DNA of 11,246 nucleotides from the IMG/VR virus record IMGVR_UViG_2645727640_000017. The stretch is one strand, 5' to 3'. Each line of letters opens with the position of its first letter. The first letter of the stretch is position 1. This document shows positions 1 to 11,246 of the stretch, piece by piece. A model generated the notes under the pieces. That model saw only the letters and a list, made by a program, of their open reading frames with translations. It was not told the DNA's origin and did no database searches. This DNA comes from a virus (taxonomy: Duplodnaviria; Heunggongvirae; Uroviricota; Caudoviricetes). A program made the translations under genes and the position numbers.

Positions 1-569
1 GACGCAGACAAAAAAATCTGGTTACGCTGGTAAGGTTGCGCCACATCGTCACGCAGCGCCATCAGCAGTGCTTCCTGTGCAAAATACCAGGTCGCTCCAA
101 TCTGTCGGGATTTCAGGATCATCCTGTTACGTATCCCGGCTTCCCTGCAAAGTGTCAGGGAGTCAAACCAGCCCCGCTGATGCCACTCCAGCCTGCTGAT
201 GATTTTTTCCCGCAGTGCGGCAATCTGTTCCGGCGTGAAATGATTTTTGAGTTTTTTCGCCCGGCTTTTCTTTCCTGTGGCCGTCGCATCCGGCTGGCCA
301 TCATGCAGTTTTTTAAGCTGCCGGGTCAGCAGGTCTATTTCCTTGAAGTCACCACCTGTTTTATTCTGTTTTTCAGTAAGCTGGATGAGGCGCGCATCGA
401 TGGACTGCGTGACACGCTGCACGGGTGGCGTTTCATCCCACTGGTCGCGTTTTTTCCACGCATAAATCGTGTTCGGGTTTATTCCCATCAGACGTGATAT
501 TTCTGCGGGCGGATAACCCTGCCAGTAAAGTTGCCGCGCACGCTGGCGCACAAAAGCGTCCTGAATCAT
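1..569 (-). CDS. P: Terminase large (ATPase) subunit, P2 gpP-like; N-terminal ~189 codons only, gene continues past the window start
   Basis: Minus-strand frame is open from ATG (complement of 567-569) to the window edge; it is absent from the supplied track because it has no in-window stop. My translation starts MIQDAFVRQRARQLYWQGYPPAEISRLMGINPNTIYAWKKRDQWDE and contains ILKSRQIGATWYFAQEALL, which I recognise as the N-terminal region of P2-family terminase ATPase subunits. It is divergent from the scaffold gene as in P2. A GGGGGAG motif lies just upstream of the start on the minus strand. Confidence 0.8.
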   Translation of the reverse strand, partial: MIQDAFVRQRARQLYWQGYPPAEISRLMGINPNTIYAWKKRDQWDETPPVQRVTQSIDARLIQLTEKQNKTGGDFKEIDLLTRQLKKLHDGQPDATATGKKSRAKKLKNHFTPEQIAALREKIISRLEWHQRGWFDSLTLCREAGIRNRMILKSRQIGATWYFAQEALLMALRDDVAQPYQRNQIFLSA

Positions 570-724
570 TGCTCCCCCTGAGTAATTACAGGAAGATTAC
601 CCGCGCGCGAAACCGTTCTCCTTAACCCCCTGTTCTGGCCGTTTTCTTACAACAAAAGCCCTTTGTATCAGCCTGTTACGCTTTGCCATCATGACTGAAG
701 AACCAGTCAGAGGGGCAAAAAACT
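570..724. promoter_or_regulatory. Divergent intergenic control region between gpP and gpO; expected site of the back-to-back late promoters (P2 P_P/P_O equivalents)
   Basis: 155-bp non-coding gap between two divergently oriented genes. Contains an imperfect dyad TGT(631-633)...ACA(649-651) with a 15-nt spacer; I did not find an exact Ogr-type TGT-N12-ACA. GAGGGG at 710-715 is the likely ribosome binding site for gpO. The promoter call is by position and synteny only. Confidence 0.35.
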
Positions 725-1561
725 ATGACTAATGAAAAAAAGACATCCCGCAAAAAGTTTCGCGTGGCTGTCTCCGGTGTGACGGCAGACGGGCGCGAAA
801 TAAACGGCGACATGCTGAAAGCTGCCGCCACCAGTTATAACCCGTCCGTTTATGGTGCACGTGTGAATATTGAGCACATCCTGTCACCACTCCCCGGTAG
901 CGAGTTTTCCGCTATGGGCGATGTTGTGGGGTTGAGCACCGAAGACATAACCGATGGCCCGCTGGCAGGTCGCACGGCACTGTATGCCGAAATTGAGCCG
1001 ACCGCTCGCATGATGTCCCTGCTTAACGATGGTAAAAAAATTTACTCCAGTATTGAGCTGGAACCACAGTCAACCATCACGGGAGGCCCTTACCTGCGCG
1101 GGCTGGCAATGACCGACACCCCCGCCAGCCTGGGCACGGAACGTCTGGCCTTTGCGGCACAACAACGTATGCAACTGATGACATTCAACTGTCAGCAGGG
1201 AGACGTGGCGATGTTCACCGCCGCTATGGAGTCAGAACTTATCGAACTCACCGAACAACGTCAGGAAGAAGGCACCCAGTGGTTTAACCGCGTTATGGGG
1301 ATTATTGGCCGTGGCCGCAAAGCGGATGACGCCAGTTTCTCCCGTATTCAGGAAGCGGTGGAAGGTGTCGCAACGTCACAGGCCGACATTATCGACCGTT
1401 TTAATGCGCTAGAAACCCGCCATCAGCAGGACAGCCAGAAAATCACTTCGCTGACCACAGAGCTGACAACACTGAAGGAAAAGCTGCGCACGCAGGACGG
1501 CGATCCGCAGAACCGGTTCACCGCAACGGGCGCAGCCTCCGACCAGCTGGCTGACTTCTGA
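725..1561 (+). CDS. O: Capsid scaffolding protein, P2 gpO-like
   Basis: 278-aa ORF with ATG at 725 preceded by GAGGGG. It sits first after the divergent region and immediately upstream of the major capsid gene. The N-terminal region and the internal LAMTDTPASLGTE motif resemble P2 gpO as I recall it. Confidence 0.88.
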   Translation: MTNEKKTSRKKFRVAVSGVTADGREINGDMLKAAATSYNPSVYGARVNIEHILSPLPGSEFSAMGDVVGLSTEDITDGPLAGRTALYAEIEPTARMMSLLNDGKKIYSSIELEPQSTITGGPYLRGLAMTDTPASLGTERLAFAAQQRMQLMTFNCQQGDVAMFTAAMESELIELTEQRQEEGTQWFNRVMGIIGRGRKADDASFSRIQEAVEGVATSQADIIDRFNALETRHQQDSQKITSLTTELTTLKEKLRTQDGDPQNRFTATGAASDQLADF

Positions 1562-1584
1562 TAAGACAAAGGAGCAAATTTTTT

Positions 1585-2637
1585 ATGAATCTGGTGATGT
1601 CAGATAATGCCCGTAACAAGCTGGGCTGCTACATGACGCGACAGGCGTCGATTAACAATATCCCGGTTTCTGGACTGGTATCGCGATTTACCGTGGAACC
1701 CGCGGTGCAGCAGCGTTTTGAAAACGCCTCAAAGGATAGCACCGAACTTACAAAAAAAATTAACGTGATCGGTGTGACCGACCAGAAAGGCGAAAAAGTC
1801 CTCATGGACACCACCGGGCCGATTGCGCGCACAAATACCAGTTATGACGGCACAGATCGCCGCAACCCGATTAACGCTGTCGACCTGAAGTCCCGTCAGT
1901 ACCAGTGTGAGCAGGTGAACTACGACACGTTTATTTCGTATCCGCAGCTTGATGCCTGGGCGGCGCACAATGACTTCCAGACCCGCATCAGCGCACAGAT
2001 TGCCCGACAGGTGGCGCTTGACCGCATCATGATCGGCTTTAACGGCACGTCACACGCGGAAAAATCCAACTTCAGCACCAACAAGCTGCTTCAGGACGTT
2101 AACGTGGGGTGGCTGGAGCACATCAGAACCAATGCCAGCGCGCGCGTAATGAATGACGTGACGCTGACCTCCCGCAACATGGACAACACCGTGGCGCACG
2201 CGGGTAAGTATGCGAACGCTGATGCACTGGTACAGGACGCACGCTCATCCCTGCTGGATGAATGGCACAAGGAAGCTGACGACCTCGTGGTGATTATGGG
2301 GCGCAACCTGTTTAACTCGCTGCGTCTGCCCGTGCTGAACAGCATCAGCGGCCAGAATCCCAATGCGGAATTACTTGCCGGGCAGCTCATCCTGTCATCG
2401 CGCACCATTGGCGGGCTGGGCGTGTTCCTTGCGCCGTTCTTCCCGGATGCAACGATGCTGATCACCTCGTTCAACAACCTGTCGATTTACTGGCAGAAAG
2501 GTTCAATGCGTCGTCTGATGAAAGACGAACCGGAATACAACCGCATCGCCACCTACCAGTCCATCAATGACGCTTATGTCGTTGAAGACTATGGCAAGTG
2601 CGCGATGGTCACTGGCCTGAAGTTCGCCGACAGCTAA
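1585..2637 (+). CDS. N: Major capsid protein, P2 gpN-like
   Basis: 350-aa ORF with GGAG at 1571-1574 ten nt upstream of ATG 1585. Conserved blocks typical of P2-family major capsid proteins (FTVEPAVQQ, VGWL, LITSFNNLSIYWQ, YVVEDYG) and the expected position after the scaffold gene. Confidence 0.92.
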   Translation: MNLVMSDNARNKLGCYMTRQASINNIPVSGLVSRFTVEPAVQQRFENASKDSTELTKKINVIGVTDQKGEKVLMDTTGPIARTNTSYDGTDRRNPINAVDLKSRQYQCEQVNYDTFISYPQLDAWAAHNDFQTRISAQIARQVALDRIMIGFNGTSHAEKSNFSTNKLLQDVNVGWLEHIRTNASARVMNDVTLTSRNMDNTVAHAGKYANADALVQDARSSLLDEWHKEADDLVVIMGRNLFNSLRLPVLNSISGQNPNAELLAGQLILSSRTIGGLGVFLAPFFPDATMLITSFNNLSIYWQKGSMRRLMKDEPEYNRIATYQSINDAYVVEDYGKCAMVTGLKFADS

Positions 2638-2646
2638 TCAACTCAC

Positions 2647-2665
2647 GGCGGGCATCATGCCCGCC
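2647..2665 (+). other. Perfect GC-rich hairpin in the N-M intergenic gap (8-bp stem GGCGGGCA/TGCCCGCC, 3-nt loop), no downstream U-tract
   Basis: Read directly: ggcgggca-tca-tgcccgcc at 2647-2665, ten nt after the gpN stop and six nt before the GGAGAG ribosome binding site of gpM. Confidence 0.5.
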
Positions 2666-2682
2666 TGTAACGGAGAGAAAAA

Positions 2683-3483
2683 ATGATTACTCCTGCACAA
2701 CAACACTGGCAGAACGTGATGGCACAGCGCGCAGGCCGGGCGAATGAAGGCGTGGACCACGCCGCGCGTACCGCGCATGAAGAGGTGCTGTATCGTCTGC
2801 GTCTGGCACAGGCCCGGCTTAAGGGCGTACAGGCCAGAAGCGCGAAAGCCGCCATCAAAAAAGAGTTGTTGCCGGATTTTTCCGGCTGGATTGAGGGAAC
2901 GCTGGAGGCTGACGGCGGGCAGCAGGATGAAGTGATTGCCACGCTGATGGTGTGGGCAATTGACTGCGGCGATCTTCCGCTGGCGTTGCGTATTGGTGCG
3001 TATGTGGTCCGTCATAACCTCATTATGCCGGATAACTTTGGCCGTACTGCTGCCACAGTGCTGACCGAAGAAATCTGCAACCCGGTACTGACGCAGGCCG
3101 GGACGGATGCCGACGCGGATTTGTCCGCCTTTATCGAACCACTGGATACCCTCCGGGAGATTGTCACCGACCAGGACATGCCGGACGAAGTGCGCGCCAA
3201 ATTATGCAAGGCGTGCGCCTTTGCCCGCCGTGGCCTGAGTGATGCGGACAGCATGGCCCTGTCACTGAAGCTGCTGCGCGAAGCAATGCACCTGAACCCG
3301 AATGCAGGTGTGAAACGCGAGATTGCAACCCTTTCCCGCGCCCTGAAAAAAGCCGATTCCGCAGCCGAACCAGAAGACGCCAGCGCACAGCAGGCGCAGG
3401 ACGAAAGCAGCAAAAGTAAAAAGACAACGCGGAAGCCTGCAACACGAAAAACCACCGCGACGCAGAAGGCGAAGCGCGGTTAA
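2683..3483 (+). CDS. M: Terminase small (endonuclease) subunit, P2 gpM-like
   Basis: 266-aa ORF with GGAGAG five nt upstream of ATG 2683. KKELLP, MPDEVRAKL and AGVKREI blocks and the basic K/R-rich C-terminal tail match the P2 gpM family. Position after N is as in P2. Confidence 0.86.
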   Translation: MITPAQQHWQNVMAQRAGRANEGVDHAARTAHEEVLYRLRLAQARLKGVQARSAKAAIKKELLPDFSGWIEGTLEADGGQQDEVIATLMVWAIDCGDLPLALRIGAYVVRHNLIMPDNFGRTAATVLTEEICNPVLTQAGTDADADLSAFIEPLDTLREIVTDQDMPDEVRAKLCKACAFARRGLSDADSMALSLKLLREAMHLNPNAGVKREIATLSRALKKADSAAEPEDASAQQAQDESSKSKKTTRKPATRKTTATQKAKRG

Positions 3484-3499
3484 CGACTGACCCCGTCAG

Positions 3500-3570
3500 C
3501 GGGCGGCGTGCGCGGTGTTCCGGTTTGACTCCGTGACCGTTTACACCGCGCACCCACCGCCCGATTTTTT
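3500..3570 (+). terminator. Candidate intrinsic terminator/attenuator: long interrupted GC-rich inverted repeat followed by T6, between gpM and gpL
   Basis: Left arm CGGGCGGCGTGCGCGGTGT (3500-3518) pairs with right arm ACACCGCGCACCCACCGCCCG (3543-3563) as 11 bp plus 7 bp perfect pairs with a small internal loop. The 24-nt apical region contains its own CGGT/ACCG mini-stem. This is followed by A then TTTTTT (3565-3570), then AGGAG (3572-3576) and the gpL start. Confidence 0.4.
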
Positions 3571-3584
3571 CAGGAGTGAACCCC

Positions 3585-4079
3585 ATGAGTATGGTTGCCA
3601 GAACCAACCCCGGACCCGCAGAGGACGACATCACCGATACCGATGATGGTGATATCCGTATTTCAGCGGGTGCATTCTGGCCGGATATTGTGCTGCGTGA
3701 GCTGCGTCTGGCGGTACGACTGCCGGGCCGTGTGACCACCTCCCGCCTGCTGCATACCGCCACTGGGGCCGTGGCACACGTTACCCGCGAGCTGGAAGCA
3801 TGGCAGCAGGAACAGCAGGCGGCTGGCCATCAGACGCTGGCCGATGTTCCGGCACCCGTAATTAACGGAGAAAGCGTCAATCTCTGGCACTGGCGCAATG
3901 CTGTTTATACCGCCACACGCGCCCTGATTCTGGAGCGTTACCGCGATGCAGACACAACGGACAAGGGCGACCGCCGGGCGGACGCACTGGATATACAGAC
4001 ATCGGATTTGTGGCGCGATGTGAGCTGGGCCATCTCTGACATTCTGCGCCGCCCGCGAATCTTTGCGGAGTTGTGCTGA
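3585..4079 (+). CDS. L: Head completion/stabilisation protein, P2 gpL-like
   Basis: The track ORF 3576..4079 begins at a GTG that overlaps the ribosome binding site; I chose ATG 3585, eight nt after AGGAG. The LADVPA..INGESV..WRD motifs resemble P2 gpL. The stop TGA (4077-4079) overlaps the gpX start. Confidence 0.85.
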   Translation: MSMVARTNPGPAEDDITDTDDGDIRISAGAFWPDIVLRELRLAVRLPGRVTTSRLLHTATGAVAHVTRELEAWQQEQQAAGHQTLADVPAPVINGESVNLWHWRNAVYTATRALILERYRDADTTDKGDRRADALDIQTSDLWRDVSWAISDILRRPRIFAELC

Positions 4080-4279
4080 TGAAGGTGAAGGCACTGGAAG
4101 GCGACACCGTGGATTCGCTCTGTTTCCGGTACTACGGCACGACGCAGGGCGTCACCGAAAAGGTGCTGGATGCCAACCCCGGGCTCTGTCAGCAGGTATT
4201 TCTGGACGCCGGGCAGGAAGTGGAGATGCCGGAGCCGGAGAAGAAGAAACGAGAAATGATTCAGTTGTGGGGGGAATAG
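4079..4279 (+). CDS. X: Small tail protein, P2 gpX-like (LysM-like fold family)
   Basis: 66-aa ORF from ATG 4079 (tgATG overlap with the gpL stop). The GDTVDSLCFRYYG...VLDANPGL pattern matches gpX-family proteins, and it sits between L and the holin as in P2. Confidence 0.82.
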   Translation: MKVKALEGDTVDSLCFRYYGTTQGVTEKVLDANPGLCQQVFLDAGQEVEMPEPEKKKREMIQLWGE

Positions 4280-4281
4280 CA

Positions 4282-4605
4282 GTGAGCACCATTCAAACAG
4301 GGATTACAGAGCAGGTTATTGCATGGCTCTTTGACCACCTGCCAACGGTGTATGCAGTAGGCGCGGCGGTCAGCATTTCCGCGCTGATGAGTCTTTATGA
4401 CGGACGAACACTGGTTCAGACCGTAACGGGATCGCTGGCGTGCGGCGTTCTTGCCATGGCCGTGGCCGGGTCGTTGCGCTTCTTCGGGTTTCCTGAAGAT
4501 GCCGTGACGTTTATCGGCGCATCAATCGGTTTTATGGGCGCAGAGAAAGCACGCGACAAGGTTATTGCGGCCTTTAATCGCAGGGTGAAGGAGAAGGACG
4601 AATGA
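4282..4605 (+). CDS. Holin (three predicted transmembrane segments, highly charged C-terminus)
   Basis: The track ORF 4063..4605 overlaps gpL/gpX in another frame, so I trimmed it to the in-frame GTG 4282, six nt after a GGGGGGA run. An alternative GTG lies at 4267. Hydrophobic stretches VIAWLFDHLPTVYAVGAAVSISALMSLY, TGSLACGVLAMAVAGSL and FIGASIGFMGA are followed by EKARDKVIAAFNRRVKEKDE. It occupies the position of P2 gene Y. Confidence 0.68.
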   Translation: MSTIQTGITEQVIAWLFDHLPTVYAVGAAVSISALMSLYDGRTLVQTVTGSLACGVLAMAVAGSLRFFGFPEDAVTFIGASIGFMGAEKARDKVIAAFNRRVKEKDE

Positions 4606-4994
4606 GCAACACATTTAAATTCAGCAGCCGGAGCGAAAAGAATTTGCAGGGCGTAAATCCTGAGCTGGTGAAAGTGACCCGACGGGCACTGGAAATTTCG
4701 GAAGTGGATTTTGGTATCACCGAAGGGTTGCGCAGCCGTTACCGCCAGAAGCAACTTGTGGCCACGGGTAAGAGCCAGACCATGAACAGCCGCCACCTTA
4801 CGGGGCATGCCGTGGATGTTGTGGCTTATATCGGCAGCCAGGTGTCATGGGAATGGCCGCTGTACGAAAAAATCGCAGCAGCATTCAGACAGGCCAGCCG
4901 GGAACTGAATATTCCGGTGGAATGGGGCGGCGACTGGAAGACCCTGAAAGACGGACCGCATTTTCAGTTACCGCACGGAGTTTATCCGGCATGA
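4602..4994 (+). CDS. Endolysin, Zn-dependent peptidase M15 family (L-alanyl-D-glutamate endopeptidase, T5-endolysin-like)
   Basis: 130-aa ORF with AAGGAG (4588-4593) eight nt upstream of ATG 4602, and an ATGA overlap with the holin stop. Candidate Zn-ligand pattern SRHLTGHAVD ... DGPHFQ and overall resemblance to the small T5-type endolysin. No signal peptide. Confidence 0.82.
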   Translation: MSNTFKFSSRSEKNLQGVNPELVKVTRRALEISEVDFGITEGLRSRYRQKQLVATGKSQTMNSRHLTGHAVDVVAYIGSQVSWEWPLYEKIAAAFRQASRELNIPVEWGGDWKTLKDGPHFQLPHGVYPA

Positions 4995-5398
4995 AGCTCT
5001 GGCCCACGCTGGGCGTCGCTTTCCTTCTGATTGCCGCATGGGGAACATCCATGCGTCTGTCGTGGTCGCTTGGCCGGGAGAACGCCAGAAACGAAGTGCA
5101 GGCCAGCACCCTGAAAAGCACCGTCGACACCCTGAATATCATCAGCACCGGGGTACAGGATATGCAGCAGGTGCTGGCGCAACTCCGCGTGGAAAATCAA
5201 CAGAGAAATCAGGACGGAGAGGCCAGACGTGAACAGCTACGCAACGATATTGCAAAAGATGAATGCGCCCACGCTTTGCCTGACGCTCGTTTTACTGACA
5301 GGTTGCGCAGGCACGCAGAACGCGCCACGGCCAGCGCCGTCAGTCCGGCTTATACCGCAGACGCTGACCATACCGGTAACGCCTCCCCCCTTCCCTGA
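4991..5398 (+). CDS. lysB: i-spanin (Rz-like), P2 LysB equivalent
   Basis: ATG 4991 overlaps the endolysin stop (ATGA). N-terminal transmembrane segment LWPTLGVAFLLIAAWGTSM followed by a charged, Q/R/E-rich predicted coiled-coil region. The track ORF 4847..5398 is an upstream extension in the same frame that overlaps the endolysin. Confidence 0.78.
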   Translation: MKLWPTLGVAFLLIAAWGTSMRLSWSLGRENARNEVQASTLKSTVDTLNIISTGVQDMQQVLAQLRVENQQRNQDGEARREQLRNDIAKDECAHALPDARFTDRLRRHAERATASAVSPAYTADADHTGNASPLP

Positions 5399-5549
5399 TA
5401 CTCCCACATGGGGAAATCTCGGTATATGGGGCGACCGCCTTCTGGATGCACTGGAAACCTGTAACGCGGATAAACGGGCCATTGAATTACTGGAACAGCG
5501 CAGGCTGCAACGACTGAACAACGAGGATAACAACCATGCTGAAAACTGA
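5229..5549 (+). CDS. lysC: o-spanin lipoprotein (Rz1-like), P2 LysC equivalent; starts inside lysB in another frame and extends past it
   Basis: GTG 5229 lies six nt after GGAGAGG (5216-5222); an alternative ATG is at 5259. Lipobox LLTGC in MNSYATILQKMNAPTLCLTLVLLTGC, followed by a proline-rich mature region (PRPAPSVRLIPQTLTIPVTPPPFPDTP). Overlaps the 3' half of lysB and 14 nt of gpR. Confidence 0.68.
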   Translation: MNSYATILQKMNAPTLCLTLVLLTGCAGTQNAPRPAPSVRLIPQTLTIPVTPPPFPDTPTWGNLGIWGDRLLDALETCNADKRAIELLEQRRLQRLNNEDNNHAEN

Positions 5550-6003
5550 TTCCCTGCGTGAAGCCATGACCCGTTCATGCCGATGGTGTCAGGCCAACCC
5601 GGAAAAATTCACCATTTTCGTGGAGAGCGGCAATATTGAAACGACCGGAGAAACGCCCTCGTTTGTTTACCACTATCAGATGGTGATGTTTGTCATGGAT
5701 TACGCCGGAGAGCTGGACGACCTCACGCTGCCGCTGCTGGCGTGGTTATCCGAAAATCAGCCACAGTTGCTGCTCAATCCGAAGCGTAATCAGGACATCA
5801 AATTTTCTGCCGTTATCAATGACGATGACAGCGCCGATCTCCTGTTTACGCTCCCCCTGCAGGAACGCGTTCGCATCACGCGCAGCAGTCAGGGTACACC
5901 GCAGGCAGAACACCTGCCGGAGCCAAAACCCCGCCTGCCCTCTTCCGAAGGCGACTGGTCGCATGTATTCCAGGATGTGACGTGGAGTGAAAGCGATGGA
6001 TAA
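5536..6003 (+). CDS. R: Tail completion protein, P2 gpR-like
   Basis: 155-aa ORF. MLKTDSLREAMT...FVESGNIE...LPLLAWLSENQPQLL matches the gpR family as I recall it. Position after the lysis genes is as in P2. Confidence 0.86.
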   Translation: MLKTDSLREAMTRSCRWCQANPEKFTIFVESGNIETTGETPSFVYHYQMVMFVMDYAGELDDLTLPLLAWLSENQPQLLLNPKRNQDIKFSAVINDDDSADLLFTLPLQERVRITRSSQGTPQAEHLPEPKPRLPSSEGDWSHVFQDVTWSESDG

Positions 6004-6631
6004 GGCATTCATCCGCGTGGATGAAACCTTTGAGGCCATCCGCGACAGCCTGAATCAGCAGGCCATCAATAACATCGCCAGAAAGCTGGCACAGGATTTA
6101 CGTCGCGCCCAGCAGGCACGTATCCGGTCACAGAAAGCGCCGGACGGGACCGCATGGACACCACGCAGACGCCGCGTAACCCGGATACAGGAGCGCATTC
6201 GCTTTATCTGGAATAACGAAGCACGCACGCTGAAAAACTGGCATCACGACACGGGGAAATACGGGCGAACCATCACCGGGTGGGATGAGGATAAAAACAA
6301 TATCCGCACGTTTTACCGGGATGACATCGACCGTTTTCTGGAAATACGCACCCGGCGCATCAACCAGGACAGCACAAAGCGCGTCCCCATGTTCGTAAAA
6401 CTGCGCACCGCCCGCCACCTGAAAGCCCGTGCAGATGCTTCCGGTGTGACGGTGGGTTACAGCGGCGTGGCCGCACGTATTGCACGCGTTCATCAGTTCG
6501 GTGAGCGCGATCAGGTTGCGCCGGGCATTTTCACCGATTACCCGGTACGTGAGCTGTTGGGCATCAGTCAGGCAGATGAACGCCTGATTTATAACACGGT
6601 GCTGGGCCGGATTGCGGAGGCTGTACGGTGA
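5996..6631 (+). CDS. S: Tail completion / virion morphogenesis protein, P2 gpS family
   Basis: ATG 5996 lies eight nt after GGAG (5984-5987) and overlaps the gpR stop; the track starts at the upstream GTG 5987. The stop overlaps the gpV start (GTGA). Assigned from conserved position between R and V and family-like sequence (QKAPDGTAWTPRRR...ARVHQFGERD). Confidence 0.8.
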   Translation: MDKAFIRVDETFEAIRDSLNQQAINNIARKLAQDLRRAQQARIRSQKAPDGTAWTPRRRRVTRIQERIRFIWNNEARTLKNWHHDTGKYGRTITGWDEDKNNIRTFYRDDIDRFLEIRTRRINQDSTKRVPMFVKLRTARHLKARADASGVTVGYSGVAARIARVHQFGERDQVAPGIFTDYPVRELLGISQADERLIYNTVLGRIAEAVR

Positions 6632-7209
6632 GCGCAGAACTCATGCGACTGCTGAGCAACATCATCCGCACCGGGATCATCTCTGAAGTTGATGAGAAAT
6701 CCTGGTGCGTGCGCGTTCGCAGCGGCGAACTGGAAACAGGCTGGTTGCGCTGGAACACCACGCGCGCGGGAGCCTTCAATGTGTGGCTGCCGCCATCACC
6801 CGGCGAACAGGTGGTAATTGCCTGCATTGGCGGCAACCCGGAAACCGCCATGATAATTGGCAGCCTGTGGAGTGATACCAATCCGGCCCCCGGCAAAAGC
6901 CTGAAAGAAATCGTGGTCAGCGCGCCGGATGGCGCGGTGTTCCGCTACGACGCGGACGCAGGCGCACTGAGCGCCAGCGGCATGAAAACAGCCAGCCTGC
7001 AGGCATCCGTCAGCGTGACACTGGACACGCCCGTCGTGGAATGCACAAACCTTCTGAGAACGGCGACGCTTGACGTCACAAAAGGGGGAAAGATGAGCGG
7101 CAATATCACGCACAGCGGCGGCAATTTCACCTCAAACGGCATCACAGTGCATACGCATAAGCACGGTGGCGTTAAAGGTGGCAGCGATTCGACAGGAGGC
7201 CCGCAGTGA
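6628..7209 (+). CDS. V: Baseplate spike/assembly protein, P2 gpV-like
   Basis: GTG 6628 lies seven nt after GGAGG (6616-6620); an alternative ATG is at 6643. IRTGII...WLRW..RAG...GEQV...KHGGVKGGSDSTGGP blocks match gpV-family spike proteins. Confidence 0.9.
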   Translation: MSAELMRLLSNIIRTGIISEVDEKSWCVRVRSGELETGWLRWNTTRAGAFNVWLPPSPGEQVVIACIGGNPETAMIIGSLWSDTNPAPGKSLKEIVVSAPDGAVFRYDADAGALSASGMKTASLQASVSVTLDTPVVECTNLLRTATLDVTKGGKMSGNITHSGGNFTSNGITVHTHKHGGVKGGSDSTGGPQ

Positions 7210-7556
7210 CAACCCGCTACACAGGAATGAACCCGGACGGGACGGGAAACCTGAACGATATGGAGCACCTGAAACAGTCAGTCAGGGATATCCTGACCAC
7301 CCCGCTGGCAAGCCGGGTTATGCGACGGGAATATGGCAGCCTTTTGCCTGATTTGATTGACGAACCCATGAATAACACCACGCGTCTGCAATGCATGAGT
7401 GCTGCCGTGATTGCACTGACACGATGGGAACCCCGCATTGCCCTGGACGCCATCGACGTTGTCTGGAAGGCAGGAGGCCGCGCCGGGGTGACGCTGTCGG
7501 GCACTGTCATGCAGACCATGCAGAATGTTGAATTAACCATCACGCTGAGGGAGTAA
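7206..7556 (+). CDS. W: Baseplate wedge protein, P2 gpW-like (gp25/lysozyme-like fold family)
   Basis: GTG start overlaps the gpV stop (GTGA). The N-terminus MTTRYTGMN and the SRVMRREYGSLLPDLID block match P2 gpW as I recall it. Confidence 0.9.
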   Translation: MTTRYTGMNPDGTGNLNDMEHLKQSVRDILTTPLASRVMRREYGSLLPDLIDEPMNNTTRLQCMSAAVIALTRWEPRIALDAIDVVWKAGGRAGVTLSGTVMQTMQNVELTITLRE

Positions 7557-7559
7557 ATC

Positions 7560-8456
7560 ATGCCCGCCGTTGACCTTTCCCAGTTACCGGAACCCGCCAT
7601 CATCGCGGAGCCTGACTTTGAAGCAATTCTGGCTGACACAAAAGCCATGATGATTGCGTCCTATCCCGCCGAACAGCGTGAAGCCGTTTCCGCCGCGCTG
7701 GAGCTGGAATCGGAACCCCTTAACGTTATCGCCCAGACAACAGCGTTTCGTGAAATGCTGTTACGCCAGCGGGTCAATGAGGGTGCACGCGCCTGCATGT
7801 TAAGCCACAGCGCCGGGACAGACCTGGACAACCTCGCGGGCAATATGAACACAAAGCGCCTGGTTATCACTCCGGCAACGGATACCACCGACGCGGTGAT
7901 GGAGAGCGACACCTCGCTGAGACTGCGGGCGCAGCGGGCGTACGACGGCCTGAGTGTTGCTGGCCCGTCAGGTGCATACGAGTATTTTGCCCGCAGCGCC
8001 AGCGGTCTGGTGCGTGATGCGCGGGCTATCAGTCCGTCTCCGGCCAATGTGACGGTTTCCATCCTGTCCACTGAAGGCGACGGCACAGCAACGGAGGCGT
8101 TGCTTAATACCGTTCGCGCCGTTCTGAATGCAGAGGATACCCGCCCGGTGGCCGACCGCCTGACGGTACAGAGCGCCAGAATCGTGACATGGCGGCTGAA
8201 TGCAAAACTGTACTTTTACCCCGGTCCGGAATCCGAACCTATTCTGGCCGCGGCGGAATCGTCGTTCAGGAAGTGGCTGGCTGAGCAGGGGCTTATCGGT
8301 CAGGACGTGGCGCTGTCAGCCATTGCTGCCGCACTGCATGTGCACGGTGTGCAACGCGTGGAGATAATCGAACCCACACAGAATATGGCCATCAGCGACA
8401 TACAGGCGGCGCGCTGTGAGTCATTCACCATCAGCGAAGGTGGGCGCAATGAGTAA
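7560..8456 (+). CDS. J: Baseplate protein, P2 gpJ-like
   Basis: 298-aa ORF with GGGAG seven nt upstream of ATG 7560. MPAVDLSQLPEP...RPVADRLTVQSA...LHVHGVQRVE blocks match gpJ. Confidence 0.9.
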   Translation: MPAVDLSQLPEPAIIAEPDFEAILADTKAMMIASYPAEQREAVSAALELESEPLNVIAQTTAFREMLLRQRVNEGARACMLSHSAGTDLDNLAGNMNTKRLVITPATDTTDAVMESDTSLRLRAQRAYDGLSVAGPSGAYEYFARSASGLVRDARAISPSPANVTVSILSTEGDGTATEALLNTVRAVLNAEDTRPVADRLTVQSARIVTWRLNAKLYFYPGPESEPILAAAESSFRKWLAEQGLIGQDVALSAIAAALHVHGVQRVEIIEPTQNMAISDIQAARCESFTISEGGRNE

Positions 8457-8979
8457 TTCGTTGTTACCACCATCAGCCAGCAATTTCATGCGTTGTGCCG
8501 AAGCCGTCGGAACACGCATTACAGACATTCCGGTAGACCTCAACACGCTGTGGTCGCCGGACACCTGCCCGGTGCATCTGCTGCCTTATCTCGCCTGGGC
8601 GTTTTCCGTTGACCGCTGGGATCGCAACTGGCCGGAAGAGACAAAGCGACAGGTGATTCGTGATGCATGGCTGATACACCGACACAAAGGGACCATCAGC
8701 GCACTGCGCCGGGCCATTGAGCCGCTGGGATACCTCATTCGTGTGTCTGAGTGGTGGGAGTTCGACGGAGAACCGGGAACATTTACCGTTGAAGTGGGCA
8801 CGCTGGACAGTGGCGTGACGGAGGAAATGTATCTGGAAATGGAGCGGTTGATTGCTGATGCCCGCCCGGCCAGCCGCCACATGACAGGGCTGAATATCAT
8901 TCAGGAAATTCCGGGAGATATTTTCGCGGCGGCAGCAACTTACGACGGTGAAGTCATTACCATTTATCCGGACGATTAA
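8449..8979 (+). CDS. I: Baseplate protein, P2 gpI-like
   Basis: ATG 8449 overlaps the gpJ stop (ATGAGTAA); the track ORF begins at 8416 inside gpJ. LWSPDTCPVHLLPYLAWAFSVDRWD and EMERLIADARPASRH blocks match gpI. Confidence 0.88.
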   Translation: MSNSLLPPSASNFMRCAEAVGTRITDIPVDLNTLWSPDTCPVHLLPYLAWAFSVDRWDRNWPEETKRQVIRDAWLIHRHKGTISALRRAIEPLGYLIRVSEWWEFDGEPGTFTVEVGTLDSGVTEEMYLEMERLIADARPASRHMTGLNIIQEIPGDIFAAAATYDGEVITIYPDD

Positions 8980-8981
8980 GC

Positions 8982-11084
8982 ATGAGTACCACAACACGAA
9001 AATTTAAAACCGTTATCACCGATACGGGTGCAAAAAAATTAGCTCAGGCAGCCGCGCCAGATGGTAAGCCTGTCCGCCTGACTCATATGGCCGTGGGCGA
9101 CGGTGGCGGCACGTTGCCCACACCAGACAGTAAGCAGACCCGTCTGGTGCATGAGGTGTGGCGACACACTGTTAATCGCGTCATCCTGGACGCAACACAT
9201 CAGAACCGCATTATTGCGGAGCTGGTTATTCCTCCTGAAACGGGCGGATTCTGGATCCGGGAAATTGGTGTATTTGATGAGCACGGCGATTTGATCGCGG
9301 TGGGCAATACTGCGGAAAGTTACAAGCCAGCCGTTGCCGAAGGATCCGGACGTGCACAAACATTTCGCACCATTCTGACCGTATCCAGCACTGCCACCGT
9401 GGCGCTTACCGTGGATAACACCATGGTGATGGCCTCAGTGGATTACGTGGATGACAAACTGAAAGAGCATGAACAGTCACGACGTCACCCGGATGCCTCT
9501 CTGACCGCAAAAGGCTTTGTTCAACTCAGTAGCGCCACTAACAGCGATTCTGAAACGCTGGCTGCAACGCTGAAAGCGGTTAAGGCCGCGTATGACCTGG
9601 CTAACGGAAAATATACCGCTCAGGACGCCACGACGGCACAAAAAGGGATAGTTCAGCTCAGTAGTGCCACCAACAGCACGTCTGAAACACTGGCCGCGAC
9701 ATCGAAAGCGGTTAAGGCGGTAATGGATGAAACGAACAAGAAAGCCCCATTAAACAGCCCGGCACTGACCGGAACGCCAACAACACCAACTGCACAACAG
9801 GGAACGAATAATACCCAAATCGCAAGCACGGCTTTCGTTATGGCCGCGATTGCCGCACTTGTAGACTCTTCACCTGACGCACTGAACACGCTGAACGAGC
9901 TGGCGGCGGCGCTGGGAAACGACCCGAATTTTGCGACCACCATGACTAACGCGCTTGCGGGTAAGCAACCGAAAGATGCCACCCTGACGGCGCTGGCCGG
10001 GCTTGCTACTGCGGCAGACAGGTTTCCGTATTTTACGGGGAATGATGTCGCCAGCCTGGCAACTCTGACAAAAGTAGGGCGGGATATTCTTGCGAAATCG
10101 ACCGTTGCCGCTGTTATCGAATACCTCGGTTTACAGGAAACGGTAAATCAGGCTTCTGGAGCATTACAAAAAAACCAGAACGGCGCGGATATTCCGGGAA
10201 AAGATACCTTCACCAAAAATATTGGGGCCTGCCGCGCATATGGCGCATGGCTGGATATTGGTGGCGATAATCAGGTCTGGACAACCGCGCAATTTATTTC
10301 GTGGCTGGAGAGTCAGGGAGCATTTAACCATCCTTACTGGATGTGCAAAGGCTCATGGGCTTATGCAAATAATAAGGTCATTACAGATACAGGTTGCGGA
10401 GATATTGGTCTTGCAGGTGCTGTGGTGGAAGTTATTGGCACTCGCGGCGCAATGACCATACGCGTTACCACGCCGAGTACGTCCAGCGGCAGCGGAATTA
10501 CTAACGCTCAATTCACTTATATTAATCATGGTGATGCTTATGCTCCTGGCTGGCGACGGGACTACAACACGAAAAATCAACAACCTGCATTTGCTTTAGG
10601 GCAAACAGGACGCAGGGTCGCAAATGATAAAGCTGTTGGCTGGAACTGGAATAGCGGTGTTTATGATGCAGATATCAGTGGTGCATCGACATTAATCCTC
10701 CACTTCAATATGAATGCGGGGAGTTGCCCTGCCGTACAGTTCCGCGTGAATTACAGGAATGGCGGTATTTTTTATCGTTCAGCGCGTGATGGTTATGGAT
10801 TTGAAGCTGACTGGTCAGAGTTTTACACCACAACCCGCAAACCCTCTGCGGGGGATGTTGGTGCATATACTCAGGCAGAATGTAACTCAAGGTTTATTAC
10901 AGGTATTCGCCTTGGCGGTCTGTCATCTGTTCAGACATGGAATGGTCCCGGCTGGTCTGACAGGTCAGGTTATGTCGTTACGGGTTCAGTTAACGGAAAC
11001 CGTGATGCATTAATTGATACAACTCAGGCAAGGCCAATTCAGTATTGCATTAATGGAACGTGGTATAACGCGGGGAGTATTTAA
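8982..11084 (+). CDS. H: Tail fibre protein, P2 gpH-like; conserved N-terminal ~390 aa joined to a compositionally distinct C-terminal receptor-binding region
   Basis: 700-aa ORF. The N-terminal half ([11 protein letters not shown]...MAVGDGGG...IAELVIPPE..., [38 protein letters not shown]) matches P2 gpH. The final 300 or so residues are Gly/Asn/Trp-rich and visibly lower in GC, ending in the INGTWYN-type tip. Confidence 0.9.
9510..9722 (+). repeat. Two copies of an 81-bp in-frame imperfect direct repeat inside gpH (9510-9590 and 9642-9722), encoding KG(F/I)[21 protein letters not shown]
   Basis: Codon-by-codon comparison of the two 27-codon blocks gives 63 of 81 identical nt (about 78%); the copies are 132 bp apart. 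Confidence 0.75.
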
Positions 11085-11086
11085 TC

Positions 11087-11180
11087 ATGATGCACTTAAA
11101 AAACATTACTGCTGGCAACCCTAAAACAAAAGAGCAATACCAGCTAACGAAACAATTTAACATCAAATGGCTTTATACAG
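11087..11180 (+). pseudogene. tfa: Tail fibre assembly (chaperone) gene, 5' fragment of about 31 codons, interrupted by IS5
   Basis: ATGATG at 11087 two nt after the gpH stop. Encodes [31 protein letters not shown], which matches the N-terminus of the Tfa/P2-G chaperone family. After nt 11180 the frame reads into IS5 terminal sequence and stops at TGA 11216-11218. Confidence 0.75.
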
Positions 11181-11246
11181 GGAAGGTGCGAATAAGCGGG
11201 GAAATACTTCTCGGCTGACTCAGTCATTTCATTTCTTCATGTTTGA
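11181..11246 (-). mobile_element. IS5 terminus (16-bp terminal inverted repeat GGAAGGTGCGAATAAG plus 50 bp of internal sequence); element continues beyond the window, transposase expected on the - strand
   Basis: ggaaggtgcgaataagcggggaaatacttctcggctgactcagtcatttcatttcttcatgtttga matches the IS5 end sequence as I remember it from E. coli, with at most one mismatch. It begins exactly where the tfa reading frame loses family similarity. Confidence 0.78.

Follow-up and report, generated by a model that had tools for sequence, protein, structure and literature searches.

The question raised by this locus is what has been joined in the tail-fibre gene H of a P2-family prophage whose 3′ end departs from the upstream genes in both similarity and base composition, and by which mechanism the joint was made. 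The window, that is, the whole stretch of DNA analysed, is an entire draft contig of 11,246 bp (JHRS01000269.1, assembly GCA_001265595.1) and contains late genes of the prophage. Its gene order begins with a partial gene of the terminase large subunit, followed by P2-type O (scaffold), N (major capsid), M (small terminase), L and X, as assigned by Pfam domains. Next come holin, endolysin, LysC, R, S, V, W, J and I, and then H and the start of tfa. The genes upstream of H carry Baseplate_J and Tail_P2_I domains. A search with Rfam at gathering thresholds revealed no RNA family within the window.

The phage records nearest to the window are P88-like, Xuanwuvirus (Peduoviridae), with a DNA identity of about 95%, and not P2. 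Positions 1-10152, the backbone, show 95-97% nucleotide identity to P88 and its relatives (520873 and the AH21F008 prophage). By this similarity, the prophage backbone is to be classed as P88-like (Xuanwuvirus, P2 family) rather than as P2 itself. An earlier note, made from the letters of the sequence, had taken P2 gpH as its reference; H is about 80% identical to that of P2, but the closer assignment of the backbone is P88-like at 95%. The features of the 3′ part of the window are the following.

8982-11084, plus strand: gene H, 700 aa
8982-10113, plus strand: constant part of H (Hc), with the N-terminal domain for baseplate attachment and a shaft containing two fibre repeats of 44 aa
10114-10139, no strand assigned: gix-type site of the Gin/Cin/Pin family of serine invertases, 26 bp, TTATCGAATACC-TC-GGTTTACAGGAA
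10140-11084, plus strand: variable part of H, Mu S′-type distal fibre and receptor-binding domain, 314 aa and the stop codon
11087-11180, plus strand: 5′ fragment of tfa, a chaperone gene of the Mu U′ / P7 Ua type, 31 codons
11181-11246, no strand assigned: terminal 66 nt of IS5 with the inverted repeat GGAAGGTGCGAATAAG..., inside which the contig ends

The product of H combines a tail-collar N-terminal domain with fibre repeats, and the gene follows J and I, as is characteristic of the tail fibres of the P2 family. In Hc, the Pfam search identified PF12571 (residues 6-152, E 2.9e-53) and, twice, PF03406. The H genes of P88 and AH21F008 have three 132-nt repeat units, whereas H of the window has two. 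At the nucleotide level, Hc is 94% identical to the expressed H of P88, and this match ends at 10152. The similarity to P2 H amounts to 80% over 8939-10147, and the DNA alignment stops at 10147, in agreement with the earlier suggestion that similarity to P2 gpH ends at about 10150.

Behind this point, the variable part of H is fused in frame to Hc across the gix-type site. Residues 387-700 of H align without gaps to residues 175-488 of Mu S′ (PDB 8JU3), with 298 of the 314 residues identical (E 3.8e-208), and 300 of 314 are identical to the product of the silent inverted arm of P88. The structure 8JU3 is that of the Mu gp52 fibre, described together with its recognition of the lipopolysaccharide core (PMC11821841). 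The separate search of the C-terminal part of H, which had been recommended beforehand, thus led to the receptor-binding part of a known fibre and bore out the view that the 3′ end of the gene is the host-range determinant. At the nucleotide level, 10114-11180 is 94.9% identical to the S′v-U′ arm of Mu, G(-). The match in Mu begins exactly at the annotated boundary of the G segment beside gin and takes in the C-terminal end of S′ as well as the beginning of U′. In Mu, inversion of G selects S/U or S′/U′ and hence the host range (PMC10434027).

Eight residues of the variable part (G421, D425, N430, D474, G476, S504, R544 and A676) are absent from Mu, P88 and P7 alike. Diversifying selection on this part was considered and ruled out by dN/dS values of 0.13-0.18 against Mu and P88. 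A gp37_C domain at residues 544-633 of H was rejected as well, its score of 20.8 bits being under the cut-off of 22.5 bits. The receptor-binding tip is rich in Asn, Gly, Ser, Thr and Tyr.

The joint itself coincides with a gix-type site. The sequence at 10114-10139, TTATCGAATACCTCGGTTTACAGGAA, matches the sequence shared by both gix sites of Mu, TTATCCAAAACCTCGGTTTACAGGAA, at 24 of 26 positions. In its architecture, two imperfect half-sites of 12 bp stand in inverted orientation on either side of a 2-bp core, and the crossover core would lie at 10126-10127. The site is in frame inside the H open reading frame, where it encodes ..IEYLGLQE.., and it is the single gix-type match in the window; 200 dinucleotide-preserving shuffles gave none. 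The breakpoint of the mosaic proposed earlier is therefore a shared cassette joint, as had been supposed, but it is a site-specific recombination site at 10114-10139, and the mechanism had been missed. An end-to-end alignment of the C-terminal region with canonical P2 H had been put forward in the earlier note as the observation that would speak against a mosaic. This comparison does not discriminate, because canonical P2 H itself shares the breakpoint, a relic gix-like site and the drop in GC content.

The left sites of P88 (16244-16269 in record L004) and of the E. coli AH21F008 prophage (5212-5237 in record L011) have exactly the sequence of the site in the window. In both of these, an inverted partner lies about 3 kb downstream, directly before a DNA invertase/recombinase gene. 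An inverted second site is present in P88, 520873, AH21F008 and Mu, and the layout of 520873 is as in P88. In the window, no inverted counterpart of the site came up when 8900-11246 was searched for repeats, and the contig ends inside IS5.

The comparison with P88 relates the window to a complete segment of this kind. Positions 10114-11180 match P88 at 19340-18274 of L004, on the minus strand, with 95.9% identity; in P88, the S′v-U′ DNA forms the distal arm of the invertible segment, where it is oriented the other way round and lies beside a Gin-like invertase. The 112 nt of the left flank in the window agree with the left site of P88 at 107 of 112 positions and with its distal site at 35 of 112. 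The 112 nt of the right flank agree with the distal site, taken as the reverse complement, at 109 of 112 positions and with the proximal one at 51 of 112. Such flank matches are what recombination within the site should leave as its reciprocal product, and at this position the window and P88 are exact inversion isomers.

Further relatives give the same picture. The AH21F008 prophage, from a complete genome, has the orientation of the window together with the full segment, the recombinase gene and an intact U′. Its flanks are collinear with those of P88 (96-97%), while the interior, 5208-7320, is inverted (93%). Both orientations thus exist among near-identical elements, with the window and AH21F008 on one side and P88 on the other, and the exchange occurs exactly at the site. 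In the silent orientation a stop codon stands ahead of the site (II*NLGLQE), which indicates that a variable end is expressed only when it is joined to Hc. Mu G and gin run collinear, at about 90% nucleotide identity, with the segment of P88 and the 5′ part of the adjoining invertase gene, and the P88 invertase has 86% amino acid identity to Gin and 74% to Cin of P7. The window holds one set of fibre end and chaperone, fused in frame (10140-11180), and the other set would lie beyond IS5; the relatives carry both sets.

It is thus very probable that the region represents the arm, proximal to the promoter, of an invertible Mu-G-type segment which determines host range and is carried by a P88-like prophage. 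In Gin/Cin/Pin systems, a serine invertase acting with Fis, with the enhancer located inside the invertase gene, flips the segment. Here, the initial 1.13 kb of H, responsible for baseplate attachment and the shaft, and the late promoter lie outside the segment, and the 26-bp site is followed by an alternative fibre 3′ end with its own chaperone gene. In the intact relatives, where the inverted second site adjoins the gene of a Gin-like serine invertase, recombination would flip about 3 kb and join Hc to one of two ends, S-type or S′-type, each with its own chaperone. Such a flip would change which lipopolysaccharide core the virion binds. The state captured in the window, with Hc fused to the S′-type receptor-binding domain, is the equivalent of Mu G(-). 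Inversion has been measured in P2-like prophages of EPEC (PMC4272514).

The second half of the arm is interrupted. The tfa fragment starts 2 nt past the stop codon of H, and its 31 amino acids agree in every position with the N-terminal 31 residues of Mu U′ and P7 Ua; the Pfam search with these 31 residues gave no match. Intact homologues of U′ are 534 nt long. Instead of a complete chaperone of about 175 aa, the window encodes 31 codons that continue into IS5 as a fusion reading frame of 43 aa. The gene is a fragment because IS5 interrupts it after codon 31. All 66 nt at the end of the contig are identical to E. coli IS5 ends, with 100% identity in the five records listed and matches in 1731 genomes. 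In one of the E. coli loci, L006, such an end adjoins a gene annotated as “IS5-like element IS5 family transposase”. Coordinate 11180 is the exact junction with the IS5 end; the transposase gene and the second end of the element fall outside the contig.

Since IS5 cuts the chaperone gene, this arm probably cannot make a working fibre: without the chaperone, the S′-type fibre would not be expected to fold, and virions produced in this orientation would lack working fibres. Loss of U′ would thereby abolish S′-type fibres, and folding of the fibre in this orientation is very improbable. The opposite orientation, if it is still present, would be unaffected by IS5. As a consequence of the IS5 truncation and the end of the contig, the second site and the invertase are not visible for this strain. 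On balance, it is more likely than not that the strain keeps both of them, and the segment may still flip.

The only serious rival is a frozen or partly deleted remnant: the S′v-U′ module would be permanently joined to Hc, much like the S-type module of P2, and there would be no switching in this strain. Such a state could have been reached by general recombination at the conserved gix-like patch or by a later loss of the remaining segment and of the invertase, for example through an IS5-mediated deletion. P2 provides a precedent, its H having a relic site and a low-GC S-type end with neither an invertase nor an inverted partner. A lambdoid prophage with the same module retains only a 219-nt recombinase remnant, and a single site is seen in the window. 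The 4 nt flanking IS5 point in the same direction: they read ACAG and so deviate from YTAR, the target preferred by IS5, whereas the flanks of the IS5 copy in L006, TTAA and TTAG, fit it. Owing to this non-canonical flank, the junction may stem from an IS5-associated deletion or from recombination between IS copies that removed part of the segment.

Against fixation speak the closest relatives, at 95-97% nucleotide identity, all of which have a complete segment and a full-length invertase gene. Besides, the site of the window is that of the functional-looking left sites of these relatives and not the relic of P2, and the junction is exactly the reciprocal product that inversion is expected to give. 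A frozen state is accordingly unlikely, though it deserves consideration, and an arm of an invertible segment is the preferred reading.

The change in base composition was examined by computing the profile. GC content is 56.4% over 1-10140 and 46.5% over 10141-11180 (46.6% at 10150-11180). Among 1031-nt windows taken upstream, the values range from 52.2 to 61.0% (mean 56.7, sd 2.1), and 10150-11180 lies below every one of them. The best single change point, by the likelihood ratio over 1-11180, falls at 10060-10113. Inside H, the part at 8982-10140 has 54.0% and the variable part, 10141-11084, has 47.8%. The tfa fragment, 11087-11180, has 34.0%, a value taken from a sample of 94 nt and in part a small-sample effect, the full-length homologue in P88 having about 42.5%. 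The estimates made earlier by eye were close: the fall from the mid-50s near 10150 was confirmed, as was the value in the mid-30s for the short tfa fragment, while “mid-40s” is slightly generous for the 3′ part of H (47.8%). The proposed check of GC and codon usage likewise gave a profile that is not flat, with GC3 down to 0.41.

This drop might be attributed to the amino acid or structural constraints of a receptor-binding domain, without a separate origin of the DNA. The richness of such tips in Asn, Gly, Ser, Thr and Tyr would agree with this, as would the concomitant fall of GC1 from 0.59 to 0.50 in the variable part of H. It is, however, a very improbable explanation. GC3 falls most, being 0.41 in the variable part of H against 0.54 in its constant part and 0.60-0.71 in the other late genes, and GC2 rises; a drop in GC3 with no drop in GC2 indicates that the shift affects synonymous sites and not only the amino acid content. 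The chaperone gene, encoding a different fold, is equally low in GC, and the same DNA is found at 95% identity in unrelated phage backbones. The change in GC is mutational or historical and is no by-product of amino acid content. Similar values are met in the invertible segments of P88 (45.2%), 520873 (43.5%) and Mu (G, 45.2%), against 52-57% in the adjoining late genes. In P2, the constant part of H has 56.2%, the variable part 43.7% and G 43.8%, with 55-56% upstream. The cause of the drop is very probably that the whole invertible module, at about 44-45% GC, circulates as a unit and keeps its own composition in any backbone.

An assembly artefact, in which a P2-like H was joined to the G segment of a co-resident Mu- or P1-like element through the shared site, could draw on the draft contig ending in a repeat and on the approximately 39 bp of shared sequence around the site, but it is hardly credible given the same arrangement in the complete genome AH21F008 and in about 122 complete E. 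coli genomes, the same contig structure in a second assembly, the module residues found in none of Mu, P88 and P7, and a repeat of 26-39 bp, which is shorter than usual reads. Specifically, about 122 of the 5426 complete E. coli genomes hold 9900-11180 contiguously, as counted at a coverage of at least 80% of 9900-11246. The junction of tfa and IS5 also recurs in the second assembly (GCA_001506145.1), again at a contig end, and so is no one-off assembly error. An exact 40-nt search for this junction in the contigs of species-representative genomes gave no matches, and it is absent from the 5426 complete E. coli genomes, where the best matches stop at 11180-11186.

The arm of an invertible segment recognised here belongs to a module that is widely distributed. 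Positions 10141-11180 have a nucleotide identity of 95-96% to Mu, D108, P7, RCS47 and P88 and of 87% to P1. At 87-96% DNA identity, the S′v-U′ module occurs in the Mu-like phages Mu, D108, SfMu and Yersinia vB_YpM_39, in the P1-like phages P7, RCS47, JL22, D6 and P1, and in P88. In the lambdoid prophage mentioned above, the module is fused to the N-terminal domain of a side tail fibre and accompanied by an inverted second arm, besides the recombinase remnant. The earlier proposal that a fibre end and its chaperone are swapped as a cassette between unrelated phages is well supported by this occurrence in Mu-, P1- and P2-like and lambdoid elements. It is the textbook case of such exchange: the title of a 1992 work by Haggard-Ljungquist et al. 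asserts horizontal transfer of these tail-fibre genes among unrelated phages.

The closest known counterpart is the G(-) arm of the Mu G segment, which is like the window in gene order, in the position of the in-frame site and in its low GC content (45%). The constant part is Sc in Mu and a P2-family H, with PF12571 and fibre repeats, in the window; 16 amino acids differ in S′, and U′ of the window is cut by IS5. The P88 record has the segment in the other orientation, with an S-type end expressed and U′ intact. The forward arm of 520873 shares with the window only the distal part, 10625-11180, at 88%.

In the C segment of P1 and P7 (Cin/cix), the same module of distal fibre and chaperone (96.6% nucleotide identity in P7 and 86.8% in P1) is likewise located inside an invertible segment beside a serine invertase. 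The variable part, in contrast, is longer, its crossover site being about 640 nt upstream of the position seen here, and the homology to the window begins at 10158, with no site at that point. P2 H/G is like the window in the N-terminal two-thirds of H and in the abrupt drop in GC. Its relic gix-like site, TTATCGAATATCTCGGTTTACAGGAA, occupies the same codon positions and has one change in the left half-site. P2 differs in having an S-type end, similar to Mu G(+), and neither an invertase nor an inverted partner site. Because the variable end of P2 is of the Mu S type, H of P2 and H of the window differ as Mu S and S′ do.

The system is thus already known: very probably, it is the proximal arm of an invertible tail-fibre segment of the Mu G type in a P88-like prophage, an arm that IS5 has disabled. 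It may tentatively be suggested that, if the switch works, it toggles between a functional S-type fibre and none, i.e., between infectivity on and off, and that the eight unique residues could mark an altered receptor specificity; both would be small variations on the known system. The finding raises no new question, and its main value lies in annotation. For the 3′ third of H, a label as mosaic tail fibre alone falls short: it should name the S′-type variable end of an invertible segment of the Gin type and mark 10114-10139 as a gix-type site. As a structure of the predicted host-range determinant has been solved (Mu S′, 8JU3), receptor predictions are transferable from Mu G(-). In draft assemblies, such segments will appear in one orientation or the other and be broken at the insertion sequence, and comparisons of tail-fibre alleles between P2-like prophages must allow for inversion isomers.

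The variable part of the tail-fibre gene H, the S'-type segment (S'v), was compared with its counterparts in phages Mu, P88 and P7, and the shaft repeats of the same gene were delimited as follows.

Window 9509-9718: 132-nt repeat unit of H in two copies, encoding the 44-aa Phage_fiber_2 repeat.
Window 10140-11081: variable part of H, residues 387-700.

The S'v segments of Mu and P88 are only 2 aa apart. The window S'v departs from the two of them at 14 positions; at six of these (within residues 545-579) it agrees with P7. The remaining eight residues, G421, D425, N430, D474, G476, S504, R544 and A676, are present in none of the three phages. The dN/dS ratio of the variable part is 0.13-0.18, which therefore indicates neither decay nor strong positive selection. 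A weak Pfam match to gp37_C, the T4 long tail-fibre tip (20.8 bits, below the cut-off of 22.5), was also found at window 10611-10880, corresponding to H residues 544-633.

The expressed arm of phage 520873 (L001 16508-17063) is 88% identical in nucleotide sequence to window 10625-11180, but this likeness is confined to the distal ~165 aa and to the start of the chaperone gene, whereas the stretch from the site to the beginning of the homology is unrelated. As judged from these alignments, a second mosaic joint is present inside the variable part of H. The receptor-binding tip is thus a sub-module in its own right.

The two 132-nt shaft units of the window H are 81% identical to each other. The H genes of P88 and of the P2-like prophage of E. 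coli AH21F008 contain three such units and encode 744 aa, as opposed to two units and 700 aa in the window. The difference is a polymorphism in shaft length, or else possibly the result of a repeat collapsed in the draft assembly.

IS5 prefers YTAR targets. At window 11177-11196, the IS5 end that interrupts the chaperone gene U' is bordered by the 4 nt ACAG, which do not form a YTAR-type target, and the intact U' sequence lacks a YTAR at the corresponding position. The junction may therefore stem from a deletion associated with IS5 or from IS-IS recombination and not from a simple insertion. At its start the contig already breaks off within the terminase large subunit gene (window 1-569, minus strand), so that each of its ends falls within a gene. 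The 30.7-kb contig of the sister assembly, which has the same U'-IS5 junction, extends further on the terminase side.

The P88 record (L004 16244-19982) contains a complete Gin-like switch, including a silent S'-type arm. The published description of P88 discusses hypervariable regions of the tail fibre (PMC5285337), and neither "invertase" nor "inversion" occurs in its main text. Gene H of phage P2 carries a gix-like sequence (L003 8858-8883) at the same codon positions as the window site; its left half-site has a single change. P2 has neither an invertase nor a partner site. The GC content of the P2 H 3' end (43.7%) and of P2 G (43.8%) is likewise low.

The same site and S'v-U' module occur in a lambdoid prophage of E. 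coli L1_E925 near potAB (L010 3216-8620), where the module is joined to the N-terminal domain of a side tail fibre. The second arm is inverted there and the recombinase ORF is just 219 nt long; this arrangement is probably a switch whose invertase was lost.
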